A stretch of 64,000 nucleotides of DNA from Fibrobacteria bacterium (lineage in GTDB: Bacteria; Fibrobacterota; Fibrobacteria; UBA11236), in contig JAYTHY010000006.1 of the NCBI GenBank assembly GCA_043732185.1, forward strand, positions 1 to 64,000. Direction: 5' to 3'. Below, piece after piece: positions 12,704 to 27,692 of this stretch. Below the pieces are notes generated by a model. It ran no database searches and was not told where the DNA came from. It worked only from the letters and a program-made list of their open reading frames with translations. The position numbers were made by a program, and so were the translations under genes. The stretch's first letter is position 1. Every line of letters begins with the position of its first letter.

Positions 12704-13378
12704 TCAGTGAATCTTTAGCACAATCCTACGATTCTTAGCCTGGTTGGCGGGAATGGAAATGCCCTCTGAATCTGTATTTGCAGACTTGGGCTTGGTGTCC
12801 GCATAACCTGCCGCTTTAAGCCGATCGGAAGTAATGCCTTTGCTAATCATGTACTTGACAATATTGGTGGCGCGTGAAACCGACAGTTCCCAATTTGATG
12901 GGAATTGAAGCGTCTTGATTGGGATATTGTCGGTATGCCCTTCAATATCCACTGCGAATTTGTAATACTCGATATTTTTGATGGCGTCCGTCACGATATC
13001 GATGTTTTCTCGTGCAGAAGGACCGATATCTGCTTTGCCGGGATCATAGATTGCTGAACTTGAGAATTCAAGTACGATACCTTCACGGGTCAAATCTATA
13101 CTGACTTCACCTCGCTTACGCTGTCCGGCAAGTAAAGAATCCAAATCGTGCTTGATTTCACCTAGAGGGGTTTTGACATCCTTATCCTTGCCAATATCGG
13201 TCCGCAAACCTTTTTTCATTTGTTCAAAGAGTACTGGGTCGACATGGGAGACGGATAACATCGTTAAAAAGAAGGCCATTAGCAGCGTCACGAGATCGGC
13301 ATAACTCATTAGCCAATCTTCTTCCGAGCCGTGCTGTTCGTTTACCCGATGGCGATTGGGATGTGCGTTGAGGGCCAT
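12704..13378 (-). CDS. motB: MotB-family stator B subunit with OmpA-like peptidoglycan-binding domain
   Basis: WLMSYADLVTLLMAFF (critical Asp kept), plug-like helix, IEGHTDNIPI, SNWELSVSRA, GYADTKP and NRRI motifs. Confidence 0.92.
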   Translation of the reverse strand: MALNAHPNRHRVNEQHGSEEDWLMSYADLVTLLMAFFLTMLSVSHVDPVLFEQMKKGLRTDIGKDKDVKTPLGEIKHDLDSLLAGQRKRGEVSIDLTREGIVLEFSSSAIYDPGKADIGPSARENIDIVTDAIKNIEYYKFAVDIEGHTDNIPIKTLQFPSNWELSVSRATNIVKYMISKGITSDRLKAAGYADTKPKSANTDSEGISIPANQAKNRRIVLKIH

Positions 13379-13393
13379 GGAACACTACCCTGA

Positions 13394-14209
13394 TTACTTT
13401 TTTGCCGCGTCCTTGGTGGACCCGGCCTTTTTTTCGAACATGGAATACTGTTCTTTACGATCAAGGTAGGAATTGAGTTTATCCTGTATGTACATGGCCT
13501 GTTTCTTATCCATGATCATGACTAAAGCCTCCAGTATCAGATAATGGCGAAATCGCTCGATGCTCAATGTCTGCCGTATTTTGGTAGATGCTGGCATAAA
13601 AACAAACCGAGCGAAAAGTAAGCCGTACAATGTGGCAGTCAATGCAAGCGAAAGCCCTGGACCCAATTTGGATGGGTCTTCCAATTTTCCGAGCATGACG
13701 ATAAGGCCCATCAATGTGCCGACCAATCCGAATGCGGGCGTCATCGAACCCATAGTGGTTAAAATGGTGCTTTCCTGCAGATGCCGGTAATAGTGTTCTT
13801 CGATGCTGGTGGTTCCCAATTCTCGGATTTCATCGGATTTATAACCGGTACTTGCCAAGTTGAAAATGTATTTGATGAACTCGTCCTTGCTCGACTTTGC
13901 AATAGTCTCATAGGTAGCCTGTCCATCCGACTGAAATTTTTTCTGCCAGTCGATTGCCGTTTTCACGTCTGCAATCAAGGTTTTTGAAGAAATGCTCTGT
14001 TTGAGGAATATCCTCAAGGTGGCAATAAAAGTGCTCCAGACGTACTTGAAACGGAATCCGATAAAGGTAACTGTAACGGTACCTCCGAAAACTATCGCCA
14101 AACTAGATGGACTTAGGAATACCTGCCAATCCTTGGTTTCATGCAAAATACCAGCAGCGATGATTATAAACCCAAATATGACTCCGAATACGGTGGAAAA
14201 AGAAATCAT
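13394..14209 (-). CDS. motA: MotA/PomA-family stator A subunit
   Basis: SLAIVFGGT, PAFGLVGTLMGLIVML and LGPGLSLALTATLYG motifs; full MotA length including the cytoplasmic loop. Confidence 0.9.
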   Translation of the reverse strand: MISFSTVFGVIFGFIIIAAGILHETKDWQVFLSPSSLAIVFGGTVTVTFIGFRFKYVWSTFIATLRIFLKQSISSKTLIADVKTAIDWQKKFQSDGQATYETIAKSSKDEFIKYIFNLASTGYKSDEIRELGTTSIEEHYYRHLQESTILTTMGSMTPAFGLVGTLMGLIVMLGKLEDPSKLGPGLSLALTATLYGLLFARFVFMPASTKIRQTLSIERFRHYLILEALVMIMDKKQAMYIQDKLNSYLDRKEQYSMFEKKAGSTKDAAKK

Positions 14210-14215
14210 AGCTGT

Positions 14216-15463
14216 CTATTTCCCCTTAGCCTTCTTGGTCGGAAAAACGGGCTTGCTCGGAGCATCTGCAGCGGCTGGTGGAACAGTAGGCACAGGTTTT
14301 TTTGCTTCAACCGATGCCTCAGGTTTCGTTTGTTCCTGAGGTTCGACTGACGCCTTTTCTGGAACAGGCGCAGCAGGTTTTTCAGCAGCGATATCGGGTG
14401 CAGGCTGCGGAGGAGGTGTAGGAGATGCAGATGGAGCTGGGGCTATGACTGGAGATGGAACCGCCATAGCTGGTTGTGCTATGGCAGGTGGACTAGAATT
14501 CTTTGGGGAACCGAGCCTACCCTCGCTATCGAATTTTTGAATTGACGTATTGTCGCCAGCGGCTTCTTCTGGAAAGGGTGCTCCATCTGCAACCTCAGGT
14601 CCGGCCGCTTCAATGACTGATGCGGGGGGTCGTGGAGCTGGGCGGGAAATTAGTGGTCTGGGAGCGGGTGAACCGCGTCCTCCTGGAGTGCGGGTGCGCT
14701 GCAGCATGTTTTCCACCGCTGGCATATCGGGATTTAGCCGCAGTGCGTCTTCCCAATGTCTTCGAGCCAAACCATTTTTTCCCATCATATAACTAATGCT
14801 TCCCGCCAAGGCATGACCTTCCGCCGTTGGCTGGGCGTCCAATGACTGCCGAACCATTGCCATGGCTTCCGGATATCGTTTTTGATAAAAAAGTTCCTGG
14901 GCTTTGCGGATCCCGGTTAAGACCTTGCTTGTAACATCCTCGTTACTGGACTGATCTTGATTGGCAGACTCCTCTTCAGAATCAGGCTTTGCTGCAGGCG
15001 GCTGGTGCTTTTCGGTTTTCGAAGACGTCTTCTCCGGTTTTTGTTCTTGTTTGGGTTCAGGCTTTTGTTCTTCCTGTTCTTGATCCTCCTGACCAGACTG
15101 GGCTGCTTGCTCCTGATTTCTATTTTTGGATGTAGGCTTACCGCGCTCCTTCTGAGGCGGAGGCTGCATAGCGGCCGCATCTTCAGCATTAGCCGGTCGT
15201 CCCGACATTTCCAGATAAACTTCCGTGGAACCAAGATCGATGCTCATGTGGGCGTCAGTGGTTTTATTTGCAAAGTGGAAATTGATTCCACCGGCCCCTT
15301 TTTCACCAGCTTGGTTTTGCGTTTCAACTTTCGTGGGTTCCCTTGTTTGCGCGCGCTCCGGAGGCGGAGCAGAGCCTCCACAACCCAGGAGAAGGGCGGC
15401 GGTCAGGCCAGCGACACCGGAGAACCGGGTACTAGAACGTATAGTGTAAGAAGGTAAGTTCAT
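14216..15463 (-). CDS. TPR-containing lipoprotein with Gln/Glu-rich and Pro/Ala-rich disordered regions
   Basis: Lipobox LLLGC; TPR-like helices KAQELFYQKRYPEA...ARRHWEDALRLNPD; low-complexity flanks. Confidence 0.75.
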   Translation of the reverse strand: MNLPSYTIRSSTRFSGVAGLTAALLLGCGGSAPPPERAQTREPTKVETQNQAGEKGAGGINFHFANKTTDAHMSIDLGSTEVYLEMSGRPANAEDAAAMQPPPQKERGKPTSKNRNQEQAAQSGQEDQEQEEQKPEPKQEQKPEKTSSKTEKHQPPAAKPDSEEESANQDQSSNEDVTSKVLTGIRKAQELFYQKRYPEAMAMVRQSLDAQPTAEGHALAGSISYMMGKNGLARRHWEDALRLNPDMPAVENMLQRTRTPGGRGSPAPRPLISRPAPRPPASVIEAAGPEVADGAPFPEEAAGDNTSIQKFDSEGRLGSPKNSSPPAIAQPAMAVPSPVIAPAPSASPTPPPQPAPDIAAEKPAAPVPEKASVEPQEQTKPEASVEAKKPVPTVPPAAADAPSKPVFPTKKAKGK

Positions 15464-16562
15464 AGGCAATAGGTTCCAGTGTCAAGAATCGTTCTGAATC
15501 TAGGCCCGTGCCTTGAATTTTTTTATTCAGCGGCAAAAACAAAATGCCCCCACCTAAAGTGAAATGTCGGCTGACACGGGATTTATATCCTACTGTGAGT
15601 GCGCTAATATGGCCGCGATTTAAAAAAGGAATGAACTCCTGCACGCCGATATAAGTCCCCAGCCAATAACCTAGATCGGGATTGGACTTCCGGAAAAATA
15701 TGCCCAGCATCTCAATGCCGAACTTTGCGGTTTGCATGTTGAAGTTGACGGCTAGACTATCCGGGCCACCAGAGCCATCCATGAATCCGTATCCCAAGGT
15801 CACTGAAAAAATCAGCCATTTGTCCGGGGTAACCGCTTCGCTAACCGTACCTTCAATGGCGTATTGGGTTAGGGACAAAGACTCAAGTGTGTCCAAAAGT
15901 GGTACACCATTGGTATCCGCTCGCGTGGTACTGGGTACGATTCCCCTGTGGATGGGAAACATTCGGACAGAAGAGGACGCGCTCCAATCCAGGTTCCAAA
16001 TATCCGGCTTTTTTTCATTTGGTCCCGCTACAAAACTCGCGGACCAAACCACTTCGCCCGTGCGATGCCGGAACACTTTGAGGTTTAAGATGACATCATT
16101 GTCTGCGCTCTTGGAACAAGATCCTTCGATGAATCCATCCACACGGAGTTTGTCCCCAAGTCTCCACAAGTCTTCCATGGAGGGAAGCGTATTGGAAAAT
16201 TTAAAAGAACTGTCGGTGGAAACCACCCGAAAAGTTCGGAGCTCCGGTGATGTCACAACGGTCTTACGGCCATCGCGCCGAAAGACCTCTTCCACCTGCG
16301 CCTGTATATAGCGCGATAGGCCGGGACTGAATTCAGCGGGATCAATTTTGATTTGGGATAGAGCAATGCGATCCATGCTGGGAGGAATATCCCCCATGGC
16401 CTTGGAAAGCCTCTGCATGATTTCAGCGATTTGTCGCAATCCTGTGGAACTGGGGGCGAAAGGATCAATGGCTGGAGCGGAGGCTGCTGAGACAGGTCCA
16501 GGATGGATACTGAGCAGCAGCGCCAGTATTACTCCGGCGCGTGCGGGGGTAATCCCCATCAT
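15432..16562 (-). CDS. Exported protein: CsgG/FlgO/LpoB-like alpha/beta domain plus putative outer-membrane beta-barrel
   Basis: Signal peptide (VSA-A); RLGDKLRVDGFIEGS...ILNLKVFRHRTGEVVWS pattern of the CsgG/TolB_N fold; alternating beta-strands ending YELTFLHYTF (terminal Phe). Confidence 0.6.
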   Translation of the reverse strand: MMGITPARAGVILALLLSIHPGPVSAASAPAIDPFAPSSTGLRQIAEIMQRLSKAMGDIPPSMDRIALSQIKIDPAEFSPGLSRYIQAQVEEVFRRDGRKTVVTSPELRTFRVVSTDSSFKFSNTLPSMEDLWRLGDKLRVDGFIEGSCSKSADNDVILNLKVFRHRTGEVVWSASFVAGPNEKKPDIWNLDWSASSSVRMFPIHRGIVPSTTRADTNGVPLLDTLESLSLTQYAIEGTVSEAVTPDKWLIFSVTLGYGFMDGSGGPDSLAVNFNMQTAKFGIEMLGIFFRKSNPDLGYWLGTYIGVQEFIPFLNRGHISALTVGYKSRVSRHFTLGGGILFLPLNKKIQGTGLDSERFLTLEPIAYELTFLHYTF

Positions 16563-18412
16563 GCCGGCCTCCCTGAATGTTTAATCTCATCGCGAATCCG
16601 ACTAAGCAGGCGACGCTGGGCAACTTCCGACTCCTTTGGTGTCACGTCCTTTGATCCTTCGATTCCTCCGGAGACCATCATCTGCATACGCTCCGGGAGC
16701 AAAGCCAAAATTTTAGTACGAATGGCTTCATCCACATGGATCAAGGCCAGGATCAGAGTTTCCTGGTCCAGGTTTTGGAGCACTCCGGACAGGAATTTAT
16801 CCGGCAATCCCGCAACTTCCGGCAGGGTAACGTACCGATTACGTATCTTTTCACCCAAACCCAAATCCATTTCGGAAATGGAATGGACGTAGTTGAATTG
16901 AAGATGAAGGGGAAGGCTGTCGATCAGTTCCAGAATGCTGTCTACGCCATCGGCGGCCACAAACCGCATATTTCCAACGTCCAATGCCTTAAGGGAAAGT
17001 CGATCGGCAATTTCTTTATACACATTGAGAGGGATATGGTCGATATTGCCCATTGCCAGCAGCAGTTTACCCCGGCTGTCCGGATCTACCTTTTGCAGAA
17101 TGCCACTGGCCATTTCTCCCTTAAGCTGCGCCATGACCAGTCCGGAAATGCCTTGGGATTCGTCGCGTAAAATATGCATGATCTGTTGCTCATTCAATTG
17201 ATGCAAGAATCCAAATAAATCCTTGTATTGATCCCCATTCGCAGATCCATTCGATAAATTCTGGAACTCGCGTTTGAATTCTTTGTATACGATGAGAAGT
17301 TCTTCCGGTGACGGAGCCTCGCCGGAATTCAAGTGGACTTCGAGCATCTGACTCAGTTCACGGCCAATCTCCGGAGTAAGCACACTCATGAGACGTGCAT
17401 CCAAACTCGCCACCATGGCGGCGGAATCACGTAGCCCTTTGTCCGGCTCGCGCTGGATCCAGCTTTTAATGATTTGACCACAGTGTTTTGGACTGCCCAC
17501 AAAACAGTTCAGTAAAAACGGACGGAAAGCTCCAAGTTCGGAGGGCTGGGCTTTGGCAGCTAGTCCTTTGCCAGTCTCAGCAGCAGGTTTTTGCGCCTCG
17601 GTGGGCAATGGCAGTATTGGTTGCGGCCCCTTGTCCTGTCTGTCCCGACCGCTCGCACCTACGATGGCGCGCGATACCATCCATACACAGGCTAGGATCA
17701 GCAAGCAGATTAGCAGAAGGGGAATCAAAGAAGGCAAGTGATCCATATAGGCGCTGAATGGGTTGGCAGCCGGTTTCTCTTTATCTCCGTATTTGTTCCT
17801 TCCGTCACGATCACTATTCGAATCGCTCTTGCTCTGTTGTGGCTGAGAGGCTAAAGGCGGAGGCGTTTCAGCAGGTTTGCGATAGGTGGACAAGGATCGG
17901 TTGTCCCGCGGAAATACGCCCTCATGCACCGCAACTCGGTCCCCGCGCAATTCATCTAAATGACAGGCCATACCAATTAGGTTGCGAATGAAATCCACAT
18001 CCTTATCGGAATAACCTGTATCCACCAATACGTCCAAGGTAACCGATTGGATGCCCCCGGATGTTTGCTGTTTGGTCTCTTTATCCGCAGCAGGTGGTTT
18101 CGGCTGCATCGTTTCTGGAAGAAAGGGAAGGCCCGGAAGTTGCGGTTGTGATTCCGTAGTTGCAGGCAATGCATCCTCATTGGACACATCAACTTCCGGC
18201 GAGGGCTCTGTTTCTACTTTTGCTTTGACAAGGAAGGTGGCTTCCTCGTAGTAACGCGATAAAGTCCGTGCAGCTAGGCTTTCATAATATTGTGCTAATT
18301 TTCCGGCTTGCTCTTCCTTACCAAAAACCTGCCGCGCGCCCTGTGCCATTGCGGATCCGGTAGCAAGACCCAACATCAACGTCATGGAAAATAATCTTAG
18401 AATTGTTAACAT
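16559..18412 (-). CDS. FliF C-terminal (RBM3-TM-C tail) / FliG fusion protein with signal peptide
   Basis: Signal peptide MLTILRLF...SAMA|Q; FliF-like GIQSVTLDVLVD...IRNLIGMACHLDELRGDRVAV, TM and PKHCGQIIKSWI; FliG-like AAMVASL, LFGFLHQL..ILRDE, DGVDSILELI, EKIRNRYVTL and TKILALLPER. Start ATG 18412 (ORF track starts at 18451). Confidence 0.8.
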   Translation of the reverse strand: MLTILRLFSMTLMLGLATGSAMAQGARQVFGKEEQAGKLAQYYESLAARTLSRYYEEATFLVKAKVETEPSPEVDVSNEDALPATTESQPQLPGLPFLPETMQPKPPAADKETKQQTSGGIQSVTLDVLVDTGYSDKDVDFIRNLIGMACHLDELRGDRVAVHEGVFPRDNRSLSTYRKPAETPPPLASQPQQSKSDSNSDRDGRNKYGDKEKPAANPFSAYMDHLPSLIPLLLICLLILACVWMVSRAIVGASGRDRQDKGPQPILPLPTEAQKPAAETGKGLAAKAQPSELGAFRPFLLNCFVGSPKHCGQIIKSWIQREPDKGLRDSAAMVASLDARLMSVLTPEIGRELSQMLEVHLNSGEAPSPEELLIVYKEFKREFQNLSNGSANGDQYKDLFGFLHQLNEQQIMHILRDESQGISGLVMAQLKGEMASGILQKVDPDSRGKLLLAMGNIDHIPLNVYKEIADRLSLKALDVGNMRFVAADGVDSILELIDSLPLHLQFNYVHSISEMDLGLGEKIRNRYVTLPEVAGLPDKFLSGVLQNLDQETLILALIHVDEAIRTKILALLPERMQMMVSGGIEGSKDVTPKESEVAQRRLLSRIRDEIKHSGRPA

Positions 18413-18576
18413 CGCACGGCAATTATACAACGAGGCATTTGTAGAGCGCATGTTTTTCTACGCAATTATTTTAAAATTATTTTGGCTAATCCTATTTGTT
18501 TCCTAAAGCTTCACGCCTTTCCTTCCGATAACTCTTTGTTGGACAGTAGAACCCAACTGATGCCTGGGAGAAGGAA

Positions 18577-20304
18577 TTGGACATGTCCTTGCGATTTTAT
18601 ATCGCGGTAATTTCGGTCCTCGGCTTATGGGCCTGTGATCCCGGGACAGTGCATGTGGTCCGGTCTTCAAACGGCAAAATTCGTCAGATGTGGACGGAAA
18701 AGGGGCCTCCCGGCCAACGCTCGGTACGCGAAGGGCTTTTTAAATCACTACTGCCAGATGGACGAATGGAAAGCACCATTGAATACCATGACGGAATGAA
18801 AAATGGGGATGCGAATTTCTGGTCCAAGGATGGGCATCTCAGTTTCCAAGGAAGATACCAAGAAGATTTTCTTGTCCATGAAAAACGTTTCAATCCACTA
18901 GGTGAGTTATTGCTAGATCGATCTTTTAAGGTCAAAAAAGCAGAAGTGAAGGCATTGGGACCGGAAGGCGATTCGATTTTGGCCGGCGAAACGTGTGCCT
19001 GGACAGATGAAAAAAACTCGCCGCCGTTGCGGCATGGGCTTTGCAAGTTAACCTATGCAAATGGAATGCAACTCGCGAATCGATATTACCAATTCGGTCA
19101 TTTACAAGGAGAGGTCACAGCCTGGTTTCCTAATGGAAAGGTTTGGATGGCAGGTGCGTACGAGCGTGACATTCCAACGGGTACGTGGAAAAACTGGACT
19201 CCCGGTGGCAAGCCACTCTGGTCATTTACTTATTCGCAAGGAGTGAAAAACGGACTTTCCGAGGAATGGTTTCCGGATGGCAAAGTCAAATCAAAAGGTT
19301 TCTTCAAGCAGGGTAAACAGGAGGGACCGTACCAGGAATGGTACCCTAATGGAAAAATTCGCGCCCAAACCGAATATCAATTGGGCAAACGCATTGGTCA
19401 GGAAGCGACCTGGTATCCGGATGGCACAAAGCTCTATACCGCTGCATATTGTAGCAGTAGCGGAAAGCTTGAAGGCGATTTTTATCAATGGTATCCCGGT
19501 GGTCGTATGCGACTGCATTGCCGCTTTCACGATGGAAAAAAGGAAGGGCTAAGCCGCGTTTGGTATCGGCAGGGCACGATTTTGGAACAGGCGAATTTTC
19601 ACCAGGGTCGCTTGAATGGACCTTATCGAACTTGGGGCCCAGAGGGAAATCCCCTGTCCTCGAAGGAATTTCGGGATGGCACGGTCGCCTTCGATTCCAA
19701 AGCCAAGGAATTGTTGGAACTGCTGGGAGCTGATCAAATTCGGGTACCTGTCGGTCTGCTAGGATTCTATTGGGGCATGTCATTAAAAGACTGTCGTTCC
19801 AACCTTTCCTTATTGCAGGCAACCAATATACACGCCGGTCAAGATGAAATAACCGCCCACTTAGTAGCCTTTGGTGATCGCCATCCTTCGGAAGCCAAGG
19901 TGCGGGTGCAGTTCAATGCCCAAGGAGAACTATGGGGAATCAAATTGGATGTGTTGCAAAAAAATTCCGCGGACTGTTTCACCATATGCGAGAATTTGGA
20001 AACTGAAATCGGCAGTGAACTTGGCACAGCGGGGCTACGCAAAGGTGAAGGCGCCGGCCAATACTATATGACGCGAAAAAAAGCATGGGGCAAATTTACC
20101 GTGACTACCGGGACAGGTGAAGATTCCTCTGCTGCCATTTCCGCTGTTCTTCCAGTGGTAAGCGCCGAGGCTTTCAGCCCAGGAGACAAAGGCTGGTTCC
20201 GATTTTCTTTAGCCAACCACTTGTATCGGGAATACGCCAATCCGGCGAATGCTGAAATAACTCCACCGAGCTGGCCGGAAGAAGCCTTCCTGGCCGGCCG
20301 GTAA
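18577..20304 (+). CDS. MORN-variant (YwqK-like) repeat lipoprotein
   Basis: Lipobox GLWAC; many G..xW(Y/F)P(N/D)GK repeats; unrecognised C-terminal domain. Confidence 0.8.
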   Translation: MDMSLRFYIAVISVLGLWACDPGTVHVVRSSNGKIRQMWTEKGPPGQRSVREGLFKSLLPDGRMESTIEYHDGMKNGDANFWSKDGHLSFQGRYQEDFLVHEKRFNPLGELLLDRSFKVKKAEVKALGPEGDSILAGETCAWTDEKNSPPLRHGLCKLTYANGMQLANRYYQFGHLQGEVTAWFPNGKVWMAGAYERDIPTGTWKNWTPGGKPLWSFTYSQGVKNGLSEEWFPDGKVKSKGFFKQGKQEGPYQEWYPNGKIRAQTEYQLGKRIGQEATWYPDGTKLYTAAYCSSSGKLEGDFYQWYPGGRMRLHCRFHDGKKEGLSRVWYRQGTILEQANFHQGRLNGPYRTWGPEGNPLSSKEFRDGTVAFDSKAKELLELLGADQIRVPVGLLGFYWGMSLKDCRSNLSLLQATNIHAGQDEITAHLVAFGDRHPSEAKVRVQFNAQGELWGIKLDVLQKNSADCFTICENLETEIGSELGTAGLRKGEGAGQYYMTRKKAWGKFTVTTGTGEDSSAAISAVLPVVSAEAFSPGDKGWFRFSLANHLYREYANPANAEITPPSWPEEAFLAGR

Positions 20305-20313
20305 AGGCTTTTA

Positions 20314-20652
20314 TTACATCAATTTCTTCAATGTTTTTTGCACCGCACCCAATTGTTTTTTAAGGGCTTTTAGCGCCGACATCGCTGCATGAACGCTTTT
20401 AAGTTTACGACCGTCCAAACTCTTGACCTTTGCAGGTCGACCCAATTTTTTTTCTTCGCCATTGGAATTCATCCAACGTTTAAGGGCAACGTACGATACA
20501 CCGAATTTCTTACATGCCGCGGAAATTCCACCACGGCCACGGCTTTTCACAAAGCTGAGAATGATTTTCTTTTGCGATTTGGAATACCTTTTTCCAGTAT
20601 TCCCTTTTTTTTTGCTTTTTTTTCTGCTTTTTTTCGCTACTACAGTCGCCAT
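20314..20652 (-). CDS. Small Lys-rich HTH DNA-binding protein
   Basis: KRYSKSQKKIIL...GISAACKKFGVSYVALKRW HTH, very basic N-tail and C-terminal coiled coil. Start ATG 20652. Confidence 0.7.
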   Translation of the reverse strand: MATVVAKKSRKKSKKKGNTGKRYSKSQKKIILSFVKSRGRGGISAACKKFGVSYVALKRWMNSNGEEKKLGRPAKVKSLDGRKLKSVHAAMSALKALKKQLGAVQKTLKKLM

Positions 20653-20759
20653 GCTATTTCCCTTTTTAATAAACATTTATTTCTATAAAAATACTAATAC
20701 TAATAATAAAATATATTTCTGTTCTATTCGGAACAGCTATCTATTTAAAGGAGAATTCC

Positions 20760-21517: not shown

Positions 21518-22621
21518 TCAAAGATTTATAGCCTTTGCTAAATCCTTATAGACGCGACCCACGCGTTCTACTTGGCCCTTGGCTGGAAATCTTTCAAAAA
21601 AGCCTTCGCAGCGGAAGGACTTCTTGAGTTCCGTCCAAGGCTGCAAGAGTTCTATCCAGCGTTTGACGCGGCCTGTAGATACCGAATCTTTGTCGGAAAG
21701 ATCGGCGCAGATACGCACCAATGCTTTTAGGGTAACCGGTTTGGTGACCATATAATTTCCATTGCCCCAGGCATCCCCCCAAACATTGGCACAGGCCTTG
21801 AGAAAATCCCGAAGAATTTCGTAATAAAATTCTGCTTGGTGCATGGGAGAAAGATCTTCCTTGAAGTCCCATTCCGATTTGACCCAACGGTTCACTTCAT
21901 TGAAAAGTTCAGCCTGGAGAATCCATTTTTCGGCCTTGCTTTTTCCACCGAGCCGGTTGATGCGATATTGAAGCGGGCTGTCGTCATTGCCATAAAGGCA
22001 TTCCACCACGCGCGCGCAACAGCGCTTATCCGGTGAGGCAAAAGAGACTTTTTCGTAAAGGTCGACCAGATGGCTTTTGTTGATACGGGTCGGCGTGGAG
22101 TTGATGATGACGAACATCTCCGTGGCAAAATCCTCACTTCGACCATCGAATATAATGCAGGGGACGTTGATGGTCGCGGCTTCAGCGGGGCGTTCCCGGA
22201 AGTAGAAATGCAAGGCAGCCAAGCGGTGCTGGCCGTCGATGATCAGATATTTATCGTCGGGTTCTTGTAAATTGCCAACGCTGTCCTGTTCCGGAAGGGC
22301 TCGAAAACGGAGTTTTTCCGGTGTAAAAAGCAAAATTGTACCTGGAATAGGGGGCTGGGTACTGGCGGTTTCGTAAAAATTGCGAATGGCCCTGATCTTC
22401 TCCCGCGCCATAGTGCGCTGAAAAGCTTTATCAGAATGTTCGATTTTTGAGATGAAACGGGCGATATCGTCTTCGGCCTTGGGTGCCTCTGCCGCGATTG
22501 GAGTGCCTTCATCATAGAAACGCGTGCTGAATCGCACCTTTTCTAGAAGTGCTTTCGCCGGATACGCGGCGAAAAAGAAAAGTGCGTCTTTTTGGCGGAC
22601 CTGGGTAGCAAGCATAGTCAT
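21518..22621 (-). CDS. DGQHR domain protein (DndB/ParB-like)
   Basis: FQR, IIDGQHRLAAL and FVIINSTP motifs. Confidence 0.88.
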   Translation of the reverse strand: MTMLATQVRQKDALFFFAAYPAKALLEKVRFSTRFYDEGTPIAAEAPKAEDDIARFISKIEHSDKAFQRTMAREKIRAIRNFYETASTQPPIPGTILLFTPEKLRFRALPEQDSVGNLQEPDDKYLIIDGQHRLAALHFYFRERPAEAATINVPCIIFDGRSEDFATEMFVIINSTPTRINKSHLVDLYEKVSFASPDKRCCARVVECLYGNDDSPLQYRINRLGGKSKAEKWILQAELFNEVNRWVKSEWDFKEDLSPMHQAEFYYEILRDFLKACANVWGDAWGNGNYMVTKPVTLKALVRICADLSDKDSVSTGRVKRWIELLQPWTELKKSFRCEGFFERFPAKGQVERVGRVYKDLAKAINL

Positions 22622-25073: not shown

Positions 25074-26224
25074 ATGGGAATGCCGGTCGCATCCATTGGC
25101 ACTCTTCACATATAGCCGTAGTCGGCCTGGGACTGCTGGGAGCCTCCTTATTGGAAGCGGCACGCAAGCGGTGGCCGGGTATCAAGGTGACGGGTGTTTC
25201 TTCCGCTGCAACTTTAGAGAAGGCCAAACTAGAGGGACTTTTGGATAAGGCCTATGGCTATTCCGATATCGATGTAGCCTGCGCGGATGTCGATCTGATT
25301 CTGCTCTGTACTCCCATCGATGCCATTTTAAATCAGCTTAAAGCCTGGGCCAAATCTCCCCTGCCTTGCAAACCAGGATGCGTGGTCACGGATGTGGGCA
25401 GCACCAAGGTTGAAATCTGCGCTGAAGGACTGAAGGCTTTTCCGGCTTCGCAAAGCGGAGCGATTTTTATCGGATCGCATCCGATGGCCGGCAGTGAAAA
25501 GACGGGCTGGGAAGCACGTGATGCGTGGCTTTTTCAAAATGCTTCGTGGGTGATCTGTCCCACAGATGCGACAGAGGCCTCAAACGCCAACAACGCTTTG
25601 GCAAGAATCGAAAGCTTTGCGCAAGGGGTGGGTGCCCGTACCACGCATATGTCGGCGGAGCTACACGACGAGGTGGCAGCACATGTTTCCCACCTGCCCC
25701 AAATGCTTTCCACCGCTTTAGCCAGTTATATTGGCGGCCGCAGCAGCGTAGTGGAAAATTGTCTGCAAATAGCGGGCGGTGGCTTCCGGGATATGACCCG
25801 GCTGGCAGCCTCCTCTTTCAAGGTATGGGAACCAATTCTGCGCACCAACCGCGCCACCATTAAAAGTGTTGTATCCGGATTTCGTGCCCATTTGAAAGTT
25901 CTCGAAGCAGCCATGGACACGGATTTGGGTGCAAACCAGTTTAACAGTGGCAACCGATTGCGTAATCAGGTAGCCGTTGCGAAGAAAGGCTTCGCGTCCC
26001 CTTTGGCGGAAGTGCTTGTCGATTTGGAGGACAAGCCCGGTGTCCTTTTGCGTGTATTCCAGCCATTGGCCGAAAAGGGTATCAATGTATTGGATGTGGA
26101 AATATTAAAAGTCAGAGAAGGCGAAGACGGCACCTTGATGATAGGCTTTCATGGAAACAATGAGGCAGATATGGCATTAGACTGTTTGACCAAGGCGGGG
26201 TTTCGTGCCCGACTTCGACATTAG
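25070..26224 (+). CDS. tyrA: Prephenate/arogenate dehydrogenase with C-terminal ACT domain
   Basis: GLGLLGAS, DVGSTK, HPMAGSE, SHLP, GFRDMTRLA motifs; ACT DKPGVL. Confidence 0.93.
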   Translation: MNGNAGRIHWHSSHIAVVGLGLLGASLLEAARKRWPGIKVTGVSSAATLEKAKLEGLLDKAYGYSDIDVACADVDLILLCTPIDAILNQLKAWAKSPLPCKPGCVVTDVGSTKVEICAEGLKAFPASQSGAIFIGSHPMAGSEKTGWEARDAWLFQNASWVICPTDATEASNANNALARIESFAQGVGARTTHMSAELHDEVAAHVSHLPQMLSTALASYIGGRSSVVENCLQIAGGGFRDMTRLAASSFKVWEPILRTNRATIKSVVSGFRAHLKVLEAAMDTDLGANQFNSGNRLRNQVAVAKKGFASPLAEVLVDLEDKPGVLLRVFQPLAEKGINVLDVEILKVREGEDGTLMIGFHGNNEADMALDCLTKAGFRARLRH

Positions 26225-26228
26225 CACC

Positions 26229-27692
26229 ATGGAGGTTGGGTTGGAGAGTTCGGTTGAAATCAAACGGAGCAAACGTCTCAAGGGTCAACCGATTCTGCAA
26301 GGCGACGGTTTGGCGGGATTCCAAGCCCTATTGCTAAGCTGTTTGGCGGAAGGGCCTTCCCGACTCGAAAATCTCCCGGCTACTCCTTGGTTTCAAGATA
26401 TTCTGGAAGACTTTATCCGCATGGGCTATGCCCAGCAGGCTCTAGATGGACAATGGCTCATCCATGGAGGTAGCGCGCCGGTTTCGGGTCCGGAGCCGAT
26501 AAGGATTAGGCATGAAGCGGAGCTGTTACCCATGGCGGCGTTTCTAGCCGCGCAAGGTTGCCAAAGAACTTTAGAAGTGAACGCCGATTGCGTCTCCGGC
26601 GAAGCACTGGAAATTTTAGGGAAAATTCTTCAGATGGAAAAGTCCCCCATCCTGGAAAGCCATCCCGAAACTGCGGTTGAAAATGAGAATCAGACTTTTC
26701 TGATTGAAGCGCCCACAGGACTGACTCCGCGGGCTACAGCATTGCTGCGCAACTCCAATTCCCAAACTGGAGCTTCCACCAAGCCGGCGGATTTGGGTTG
26801 GGATGAATATCTGGCCAAGTTAACTTTATTGACCTATCACATTTCCGTCGGGCAGCCGCTGGATATTTCTCTGACGAAAAGCGGTCCGGATCTCATCGAT
26901 GGCTTGGCGGCCCACTTTGAATTGCCGATAAAAATCGATCGCAATGAGGCCCCGGAAGGCGATGAATTGGCGCGTAGAATCGCCCGGCAGATGCGTGCGG
27001 CCGGTAAAACAGAGCCGGTCCTTCGACTTCGATTGGCAGCGGGCTCGAAGCCTAAACCTCAGACGTATTCCATTCCCGCTGACTTAACCCAGGCTTCGGC
27101 TTTTTGTCTGGCGGCAACTTTGATTAAGGGTTCCGATATCACACTGGAAAACATCCCCCTCAACCCCTCCCGGGCGGGATTCATTTCAGCCCTGCGCCGG
27201 ATGGGGGCGGATATTGAAGTGGTGTCTCGACGTGAACGACACGGTGAAGGCTTTGGACTATTGCGCATTCGCACCGCCGACCTCATCGGCAAACGATTTG
27301 GCGGAGATTCCATTTCAACCTTACGCGACGAAATATTCCTTTTGATGGTGGCCGCTGCCTTTGCCGAAGGGGAAACCGTCATACGGGACATTGCCCATCT
27401 GCGCCGCCATCGCCGCGACCTGCTCAAAATTTTTGTCGCCAACTTGAGATCCGCCGGAGTTGAAATCGGAGAAATAGAGGATGGACTCGTAATCCGTGGC
27501 CGTGCCGATTACGACGGGAGCGCCTATGATGCTTTGGGTCATCCTGGCCTGGGACTGGCATGCCTGGTGATGGGACTGAAATCCCACGGAACCTCGCTGC
27601 TCTGGGGCGCCGGCTGCCTCGCAGGAAAATATCCAGGAATGGTGGAACAAATGGCCACTCTTGGACAAGTCGCGGCCGGAGAAAAGCCATGA
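26229..27692 (+). CDS. EPSP synthase (AroA)-like protein with degenerate active site
   Basis: AroA scaffold kept (LKG, LAEGPS, LNPSRAG..L.RMGADI, AEGETVI, DGLVI.G) but catalytic motifs altered (see findings). Start ATG 26229. Confidence 0.8.
   Translation: MEVGLESSVEIKRSKRLKGQPILQGDGLAGFQALLLSCLAEGPSRLENLPATPWFQDILEDFIRMGYAQQALDGQWLIHGGSAPVSGPEPIRIRHEAELLPMAAFLAAQGCQRTLEVNADCVSGEALEILGKILQMEKSPILESHPETAVENENQTFLIEAPTGLTPRATALLRNSNSQTGASTKPADLGWDEYLAKLTLLTYHISVGQPLDISLTKSGPDLIDGLAAHFELPIKIDRNEAPEGDELARRIARQMRAAGKTEPVLRLRLAAGSKPKPQTYSIPADLTQASAFCLAATLIKGSDITLENIPLNPSRAGFISALRRMGADIEVVSRRERHGEGFGLLRIRTADLIGKRFGGDSISTLRDEIFLLMVAAAFAEGETVIRDIAHLRRHRRDLLKIFVANLRSAGVEIGEIEDGLVIRGRADYDGSAYDALGHPGLGLACLVMGLKSHGTSLLWGAGCLAGKYPGMVEQMATLGQVAAGEKP

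Follow-up and report, generated by a model that had tools for sequence, protein, structure and literature searches.

FFG, our working name for a gene and protein that joins an RBM3-containing part of FliF to FliG (RBM, ring-building motif), lies within a stretch of 64,000 nucleotides from a Fibrobacteria bacterium (assembly GCA_043732185.1, contig JAYTHY010000006.1, positions 1 to 64,000), here called the window. It is the first of five genes on the same strand, followed by genes for a secreted protein (P0083), a TPR lipoprotein, MotA and MotB. We consider that FFG probably serves as the rotor subunit in an ion-driven rotor-stator module that works independently of the flagellum. An earlier note on this DNA had proposed a truncated FliF followed by FliG-like domains in one reading frame, and the sequence and profile evidence bears this layout out: an order of signal-peptide-like N-terminus, split RBM3-like domain, one predicted transmembrane (TM) helix, FliF-tail motif and FliG-like domains is supported. 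That account gave FFG alone, as it stood, and missed the dedicated MotA/MotB stator and the two envelope proteins encoded with it in a fixed operon.

FFG is likelier to start at its second ATG (Met14, position 18412), because close homologues begin there in the alignment. The earlier note had placed the gene at 16559..18412; the upper end of this interval is the probable start, and the minus strand had been missed. All the peptides quoted there are present in the translation: SAMA|Q (residues 33-37), YYESLAARTLSRY..FLVKAKVE (55-80), GIQSVTLDVLVD..IRNLIGMACHLDELRGDRVAV (132-175) and QIIKSWI (326-332). The RGD, correctly located at 17939-17947, corresponds to residues 169-171. The parts of FFG are as follows.

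16559..18451, minus strand: FFG gene, 630 aa, a single open reading frame (ORF), probable start Met14 at 18412
18344..18412, minus strand: signal-peptide-like N-terminus, residues 14-36 (...GSAMA|Q), from the sequence and a family-wide heuristic
18212..18316, minus strand: RBM3a-like helix and strand, residues 46-80, aligned by hhalign to E. coli FliF 232-270
18056..18211, minus strand: Pro-rich insert at the FliF beta-collar position, 52 residues with 10 Pro
18125-18139, minus strand: invariant LPGLP, residues 105-109, inside the 52-residue insert
17909..18055, minus strand: RBM3b-like strand-helix-strand with invariant RGD, residues 133-181, from Pfam YscJ_FliF_C and hhalign
17672..17737, minus strand: predicted TM helix, residues 239-260, from hydropathy, then an Arg/Lys-rich cytoplasmic start
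17441..17524, minus strand: FliF C-terminal-tail-like motif, residues 310-337 (...SPKHCGQIIKSWIQRE), from hhalign
17222..17440, minus strand: FliG_N-like region, weakly supported, residues 338-410, from profile comparison
16970..17188, minus strand: FliG_M domain, residues 422-494, from Pfam; EHPQ reduced to D-E-S-x-G
16586..16882, minus strand: FliG_C domain, residues 524-622, from Pfam; torque helix with Arg588, equivalent to E. coli R281

Cleavage of the signal peptide is plausible. By a simple heuristic, a hydrophobic core of ~13-14 residues is followed by a small-x-small pattern in 72 of the 73 close FFG members, and in 98 of the 123 distant ones, that show a hydrophobic run near the N-terminus.

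The FliF-like part was analysed by profile-profile comparison (hhalign) with a FliF profile built from E. coli FliF and 30 canonical FliF proteins of Fibrobacterota. Residues 46-345 of FFG are collinear with E. coli FliF 232-552 (probability 91.6%, P 8e-7). Taken separately, the periplasmic part matches the RBM3 segment of FliF (P 3.8e-5, probability 71%). No match was obtained with the RBM1-RBM2 segment (P 0.26), with RBM3 or FliF in reverse (P 0.63 and 0.24, respectively) or with any of three unrelated alignments (P 0.085-0.86), and by these controls the similarity is specific for RBM3. In the published description, RBM3 has a helix-strand, insertion, strand-helix-strand topology (PMC11481574). 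The FFG match follows this topology, and its insertion point falls exactly at the site of the FliF beta-collar. The collar itself is missing from FFG, whose insert of 52 residues compares with ~104 residues in E. coli FliF (271-374); the earlier suggestion that a short Pro-rich insert takes its place thus agrees with what we find.

The Pfam comparison proposed alongside that suggestion turned out mixed, with FliG_M and FliG_C above their cut-offs and YscJ_FliF_C (PF08345) just below. The latter matches residues 125-177 of FFG with an E-value of 2.6e-4 and 21.9 bits, against a cut-off of 23.8; in a six-frame search it reaches 23.9 bits, and it matches 13 of 51 aligned FFG members at E <= 0.01 (best E 6.8e-6). 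PF01514 (YscJ_FliF), which covers RBM1-RBM2, is absent from FFG by Pfam, and in the genome-wide search it was found only in the canonical FliF on contig C56. Since only ~10 residues separate the signal-peptide-like N-terminus from the first RBM3 helix, both RBM1 and RBM2 are absent.

On the other side of the membrane, a linker of ~45 residues leads from the TM helix to the SPKHCGQIIKSWIQRE motif. The tail motif (residues 310-337) matches the extreme C-terminus of FliF (P 1.6e-4, hhalign), so that the FliF feature of a second TM helix followed by a FliG-binding tail is present in FFG (TM 239-260 plus the tail match). We also built a junction profile from the last 45 residues of FliF and the first 115 residues of FliG of the same genomes; FFG residues 312-405 are collinear with it (P 1.7e-5; reversed control, P 0.32). 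With both the tail and the FliG_N junction matched, the most fitting reading of FFG is that the distal half of FliF has been fused end to end with FliG. An early hhalign register, obtained with a FliG profile of two sequences, had placed QIIKSWI on helix 1 of FliG_N; this was dropped after deeper profiles favoured the FliF tail.

The FliG-like part is recognised by Pfam above the cut-offs (FliG_C, E 5.5e-15; FliG_M, E 1.1e-10), and both domains are present in all 51 FFG members scanned. A profile of the FFG family also matches solved FliG chains over the M and C domains (Aquifex 3hjl, E 2.6e-18; Thermotoga 1lkv, 3.7e-18). The N domain is less clear: the Pfam FliG_N match falls on the M region (residues 439-506), and residues 338-404 match a 26-sequence FliG_N profile weakly (P 0.012), with 7.6 bits for the PDB profile. 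On the FliG equivalog TIGR00207, FFG scores 69 bits, below the cut-off of 226.7, and NCBIfam holds no model for the FFG family. The FliG part of FFG is 21-23% identical to both the genome's own FliG and E. coli FliG, which are 37.7% identical to each other. A tree built on the M-C region of FliG separates 20 canonical FliG proteins, that of E. coli among them, from all 53 FFG rows, with the Fibrobacterota FFGs nested within the distant ones. This was a quick tree (SH-aLRT 85) with midpoint rooting only, an unfinished careful search and two mis-extracted rows ignored.

Several functional positions of FliG are altered in FFG. The EHPQ(R) motif that binds FliM is lost, with D-E-S-x-G in its place; of its residues only the Glu is retained (77/77 close and 110/130 distant members), and because of this reduction, FFG is unlikely to bind FliM. 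The positions of D288 and D289 are Gly/Ser in FFG; the Fibrobacterota clade has S/G there, and part of the distant members have E/D. The equivalent of R281, Arg588, is Arg in all 77 close members; of 130 distant ones, 103 have Arg and 23 have Lys at this position.

The other four genes of the cluster follow FFG closely.

15432..16562, minus strand: P0083, 376-aa secreted protein, its start overlapping the FFG stop by 4 nt
14216..15469, minus strand: TPR lipoprotein with lipobox LLGC, a C-terminal TPR-like domain and long low-complexity linkers
13394..14209, minus strand: MotA, flagellar-type, dedicated
12704..13378, minus strand: MotB, dedicated, with plug and OmpA-like peptidoglycan-binding domain and conserved channel Asp

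The order of the five genes is identical in 16 of 21 genome loci, and the remaining five loci end at contig edges. When 12 diverse loci were compared all against all, exactly these five genes, and nothing else, were common to 12/12. In all 12, the hydrophobic leader of the lipoprotein is followed by a Cys. P0083 has a signal peptide, a conserved N-domain of ~140 residues and a beta-rich C-terminal half ending in ...YTF. The window's P0083 has no Pfam family, Pfam FlgO matches two of 27 members, and a PDB profile search with the P0083 family gave no match below E 0.15. A language-model search returned LpoB/CsgG/TolB_N-type and outer-membrane beta-barrel clusters, which are leads only; an LpoB/FlgO/CsgG-like nature of the N-domain is likewise a lead. 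A promoter and terminator scan was uninformative, with fewer sites than in shuffled sequence.

The stator looks flagellar-type and appears to be a working one. In NCBIfam, the cluster MotA scores ~130 bits on MotA/MotP/PomA models vs ~24 bits on TolQ/ExbB, its best equivalog model giving 135 bits, below the cut-off of 340. By Pfam, MotA has the MotA_ExbB domain, and MotB has the plug and OmpA-like domains. The pair keeps the equivalents of MotB D32 (the channel Asp) and of MotA P173, P222 and E98. A Zorya defence system would have ZorA and ZorB together with effector genes; PADLOC gave only generic ZorB/MotB matches for MotB, found no ZorA, and returned no match to MotA, FFG, P0083 or the lipoprotein.

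In E. coli, two charge pairs are described at the rotor-stator interface: MotA R90 with FliG D288/D289, and MotA E98 with FliG R281 (PMC12505986). The second pair is kept on both sides in the clusters, the E98 equivalent being E or D in 12/12 cluster MotAs. The first is neutral on both sides in 11 of the 12 loci (Q/S/T in MotA; G/S/A at both FFG positions). In the twelfth, that of genome G042, it is charged on both sides, with Arg at E-8 in MotA and Glu at R+8 in FFG. The window genome's flagellar MotA (Arg at E-8) and FliG keep the canonical charges, and this FliG keeps EHPQ. Such a matched change of charge is what a dedicated MotA-FFG interface predicts.

We used a sample of 201 Fibrobacterota genomes, including one unpublished genome (G194, without FFG and P0083), and a threshold of E <= 1e-52 for FFG-type matches. 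FFG occurs in 22 of the 201 genomes and P0083 in the same 22. A further 72 genomes have canonical-FliG-type matches only, and no FFG. In the window genome, contig C56 encodes the canonical FliF and FliG, of 560 and 352 aa, and contig C50 a second MotAB; genes for flagellin, rod proteins and FliM are present too, and with these separate flagellar genes present, the cluster is a paralogous system. One carrier, G042, is a genome of 1.6 Mb in a single contig, 98% complete, in which the five genes are kept with key motifs intact (locus L028, G042:C1:929000-945000). Searches of G042 did not find FliF-N (PF01514), FlhA (PF00771), flagellin (PF00669), rod proteins (PF00460), FliM (PF02154) or canonical FliG. 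The flagellum does not need the cluster, and the cluster does without a flagellum in at least one lineage. Separately, contig C6 of the window genome, which also holds the cluster, has flagellin-like (93653-94051) and rod/hook-like (95678-95761) matches outside the window, ~75 kb from the cluster and thus not adjacent.

As fliF and fliG are usually adjacent, a frameshift or mis-join could mimic a fusion, and FFG might then be either a chimera made in assembly or what is left of a fliF-fliG operon in decay. We give this next to no credence. Among 81 database homologues, 76 are 578-672 aa long with the same layout and in one frame, the other five being fragments; FFG is also in a single frame at 21/21 genome loci, with titles naming Fibrobacterota, Fibrobacteria, Fibrobacterales or Fibrobacteraceae. 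Contigs from runs X3, X4 and X5 (one from another study) span the FFG junctions, covering the stretch from TM helix through tail to FliG_N (17232-17842; 17031-17705) as well as the passage from FFG into P0083 (15915-17029). The homologues, loci and independent contigs together exclude the assembly chimera that the earlier note had named as one possible refutation. FFG is also under purifying selection: comparison with two close orthologues gives dN/dS values of 0.057 and 0.086 for the whole gene, with 0.04-0.08 for the periplasmic domain and 0.010-0.016 for the FliG part. An intact, separate fliF-fliG is present in the same genome, and only one of 22 genome copies has an in-frame stop. That copy (G174:C133:25700-27580) carries a single in-frame TAG, for which a sequencing error or a broken copy are both possible.

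The family extends beyond these genomes. An exhaustive profile search of 1.84 billion representatives (50%-identity clusters) gave ~170 FFG matches at E <= 1e-30; at E <= 1e-10 there were 1100 matches, the majority of which are presumably ordinary FliG. Lengths among the best 150 lie mostly between 560 and 780 aa, with matches from end to end. Among 130 distant full-length members, the P and G of the LPG motif are kept in 122 and 117, and the G and D of RGD in 124 and 126. A homologue search with 24 distant members returned six matches, one of them labelled as a Pseudomonadota metagenome-assembled genome (MAG). Language-model look-alikes of FFG come from Balneolota, Pseudomonadota, Bdellovibrionota, Bacteroidota and Elusimicrobiota, and those of P0083 from Balneolota, Myxococcota and Bdellovibrionota; these are leads only, and with so few matches from the homologue search the wider taxonomic range of FFG depends on them. 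A metagenome search for related loci found only canonical FliG-like loci, at 23% identity. Two Elusimicrobia MAG proteins (P0304 and P0305, 655-678 aa) combine TPR repeats with FliG_M and FliG_C and form another non-canonical FliG fusion.

Given that the cluster also occurs in a genome without a flagellum, it appears to be a rotary-motor module that serves some purpose besides swimming. The analysis shows the domain homologies, the linkage of the five genes, the co-occurrence, purifying selection and, for one genome, independence from flagellar genes; that FFG forms a ring and rotates, what the two envelope proteins contribute and what the cell uses the module for are inferred. The mechanism would run as follows. 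After Sec export and probable signal-peptide cleavage, FFG would sit in the inner membrane by its one TM helix. Its RBM3-like domain would oligomerise into a ring without the RBM1/RBM2 inner ring, the beta-collar or a rod socket, and without that inner ring there would be no seat for a type III export gate. The covalently attached FliF-tail and FliG N-M-C domains would form a cytoplasmic torque ring. The cluster MotA/MotB, anchored to peptidoglycan, would then use ion flow to push the torque helix of FliG_C through a re-tuned charge interface, and the LPGLP insert, the TPR lipoprotein and P0083 could position the stators and/or carry the output to the outer envelope. The ring with an open centre that the earlier note foresaw would thus be an inference from homology to a ring-building motif. 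Its proposal that FFG has no role in type III export gains real support, the export-gate region being absent and the cluster being kept in G042 without the flagellar markers searched.

A number of observations weigh against a rotor of this kind. YscJ_FliF_C is below its cut-off in the window's FFG and is missed in 38 of 51 members, and the periplasmic match is by itself modest (probability 66-74%). The beta-collar, a contributor to the S-ring, is missing, and the RBM3 fold and ring formation are at present unproven predictions. With EHPQ and two torque-helix aspartates lost, the FliG-like part may not work like FliG. The charge co-variation is confined to one lineage and therefore amounts to one event. 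Flagellar genes are found in 21 of 22 carriers (canonical FliG in 20, FliF and FlhA in G187), so independence from the flagellum rests on one genome, G042. Nor is there an axle, filament or adhesin identifiable as an output structure.

Some of these observations would suit other roles. FFG might be a non-rotary force transducer, a monomer or small oligomer gripped through FliG_C by the MotA pentamer. Ion-driven force would then cross the membrane to the periplasmic domain, the lipoprotein and an outer-membrane partner, in a Ton/Tol-like manner with cytoplasmic coupling. The pairing of an inner-membrane energiser with a lipoprotein and a probable outer-membrane protein, as in Tol-Pal and Ton, fits this idea, as do the missing beta-collar and the Pro-rich insert. 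However, the stator is flagellar-type with a plug domain rather than TolQR/ExbBD-like, the periplasmic domain matches a ring-building motif, and the M and C domains of FliG are not known other than as subunits of a ring; we therefore regard both the grip by MotA and the Ton/Tol-like transmission as unlikely. Still less probable, in our view, is that FFG is an accessory or alternative part of the flagellum, such as a second rotor ring or a stator-recruiting ring, which needs the canonical flagellum. Most carriers do have canonical FliG, with FliF and FlhA in a further one, and TPR and FlgO-type proteins are flagellar motor accessories in other bacteria, although Pfam FlgO is found in so few P0083 members. 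Yet G042 keeps the cluster without any of the six flagellar markers searched, and the 72 genomes with canonical-FliG-type matches alone indicate that the flagellum does not need FFG. The cluster also never adjoins flagellar genes in the 12 loci compared, and it has its own stator, with rotor-facing charges unlike those of the resident flagellar MotA.

Beyond FFG as a probable rotor subunit, we offer two broader readings with less confidence. The cluster possibly encodes a bacterial machine of an undescribed type, a minimal rotary motor that combines a FliF-RBM3/FliG ring with flagellar-type MotAB, is coupled to partners in the outer envelope, is found in several phyla and lacks the type III core, rod, hook and filament. 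It is a similarly tentative thought that such a motor descends from, or keeps the logic of, a rotor-stator unit able to work apart from the secretion apparatus.

A few features near the cluster deserve mention. A 575-aa MORN-repeat (LIC20035 adhesin-like) protein is encoded divergently from the cluster (18577-20304, plus strand). Its gene lies beside the cluster in nine genus-level loci (L007-L015); among more distant loci it was seen only in L017, as a weak match (26% identity) ~6.5 kb from FFG. Within a few kb of the cluster are genes for a small transposase-HTH-like protein (20314-20676, minus strand) and a DndB / GmrSD_N-like protein (21518-22621, minus strand). Further along, only residues 280-482 of a 495-aa ORF (26205-27692, plus strand) match EPSP synthase (profile positions 222-416 of 417), and there may be something wrong or unusual about its called start or its N-terminal half.

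The flagellum is regarded as the only place where flagellar rotor proteins work. Rotor proteins in non-motile species were noted in a recent survey, which left open whether they have another function (bioRxiv 10.1101/2024.12.05.626484). The cluster is a concrete, conserved and compact candidate for such a function, comprising a gene for the rotor, a stator pair and two genes for envelope proteins. Its heterologous expression could ask if an RBM3 domain alone is enough to form a ring, and could show whether a FliG ring is drivable without FliM/FliN and without an export gate. It also raises the question of what such a motor would turn, and it bears on how flagellar rotor-stator and secretion parts came to be joined.

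A full-text literature search, with most subscription journals outside its coverage, returned no account of the FFG family or cluster. The Chlamydiaceae FliF-FliG fusion is the only natural one we found in print and the closest known case. As described in print, it has ~330 aa, with two TM helices, an RBM2-like part and a further RBM (PMC4768692). In this description it has no SpoIIIAG-like (RBM3) domain and only a FliG_M-like region, and it is discussed together with the injectisome (PMC4768692). Like FFG, it is, as there described, a natural single chain of a shortened FliF and a FliG-like part with an N-terminal signal sequence, and both occur in bacteria without a flagellum (G042 in the case of FFG). 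Compared by description only, FFG is otherwise its reverse, having no RBM1/2, an RBM3-like domain, one TM helix, FliG N/M/C and a dedicated MotAB; the Chlamydiaceae fusion, as described, has no stator.

Compared with canonical FliF and FliG, FFG shares an RBM3-like domain with a conserved RGD and the Arg equivalent to R281, and it runs through TM2, tail motif and FliG N/M/C-like domains as does the canonical fliF-fliG gene order. Unlike them it is fused and lacks RBM1/RBM2, the beta-collar, EHPQ and D288/D289. Engineered FliF-FliG fusions are reported to assemble rings and support motility (PMC10941966). These Salmonella and Vibrio constructs (PMC10941966, PMC11481574) resemble FFG in joining FliF and FliG end-to-end in one chain. 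However, they are lab-made, contain full-length FliF and sit within the flagellum (in Salmonella the motor works), whereas FFG is natural, truncated and encoded in its own operon. The SpoIIIAG-type proteins of sporulation channels, as described, are non-flagellar and have an RBM3-like ring-building motif with an insertion between its first two strands (PMC4768692, PMC11481574). Compared by description only, they differ from FFG in having no FliG part and no stator. Tol-Pal, Ton, GldLM/T9SS, AglRQS and Zorya share with the FFG cluster an ion-driven 5:2-type energiser and envelope components; unlike it, they are not known to use a FliG-like partner, and the stator of the FFG cluster is flagellar-type. 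The cluster is a set of flagellar parts in a new stand-alone arrangement, with a substantial chance of being a machine that is new as a category.

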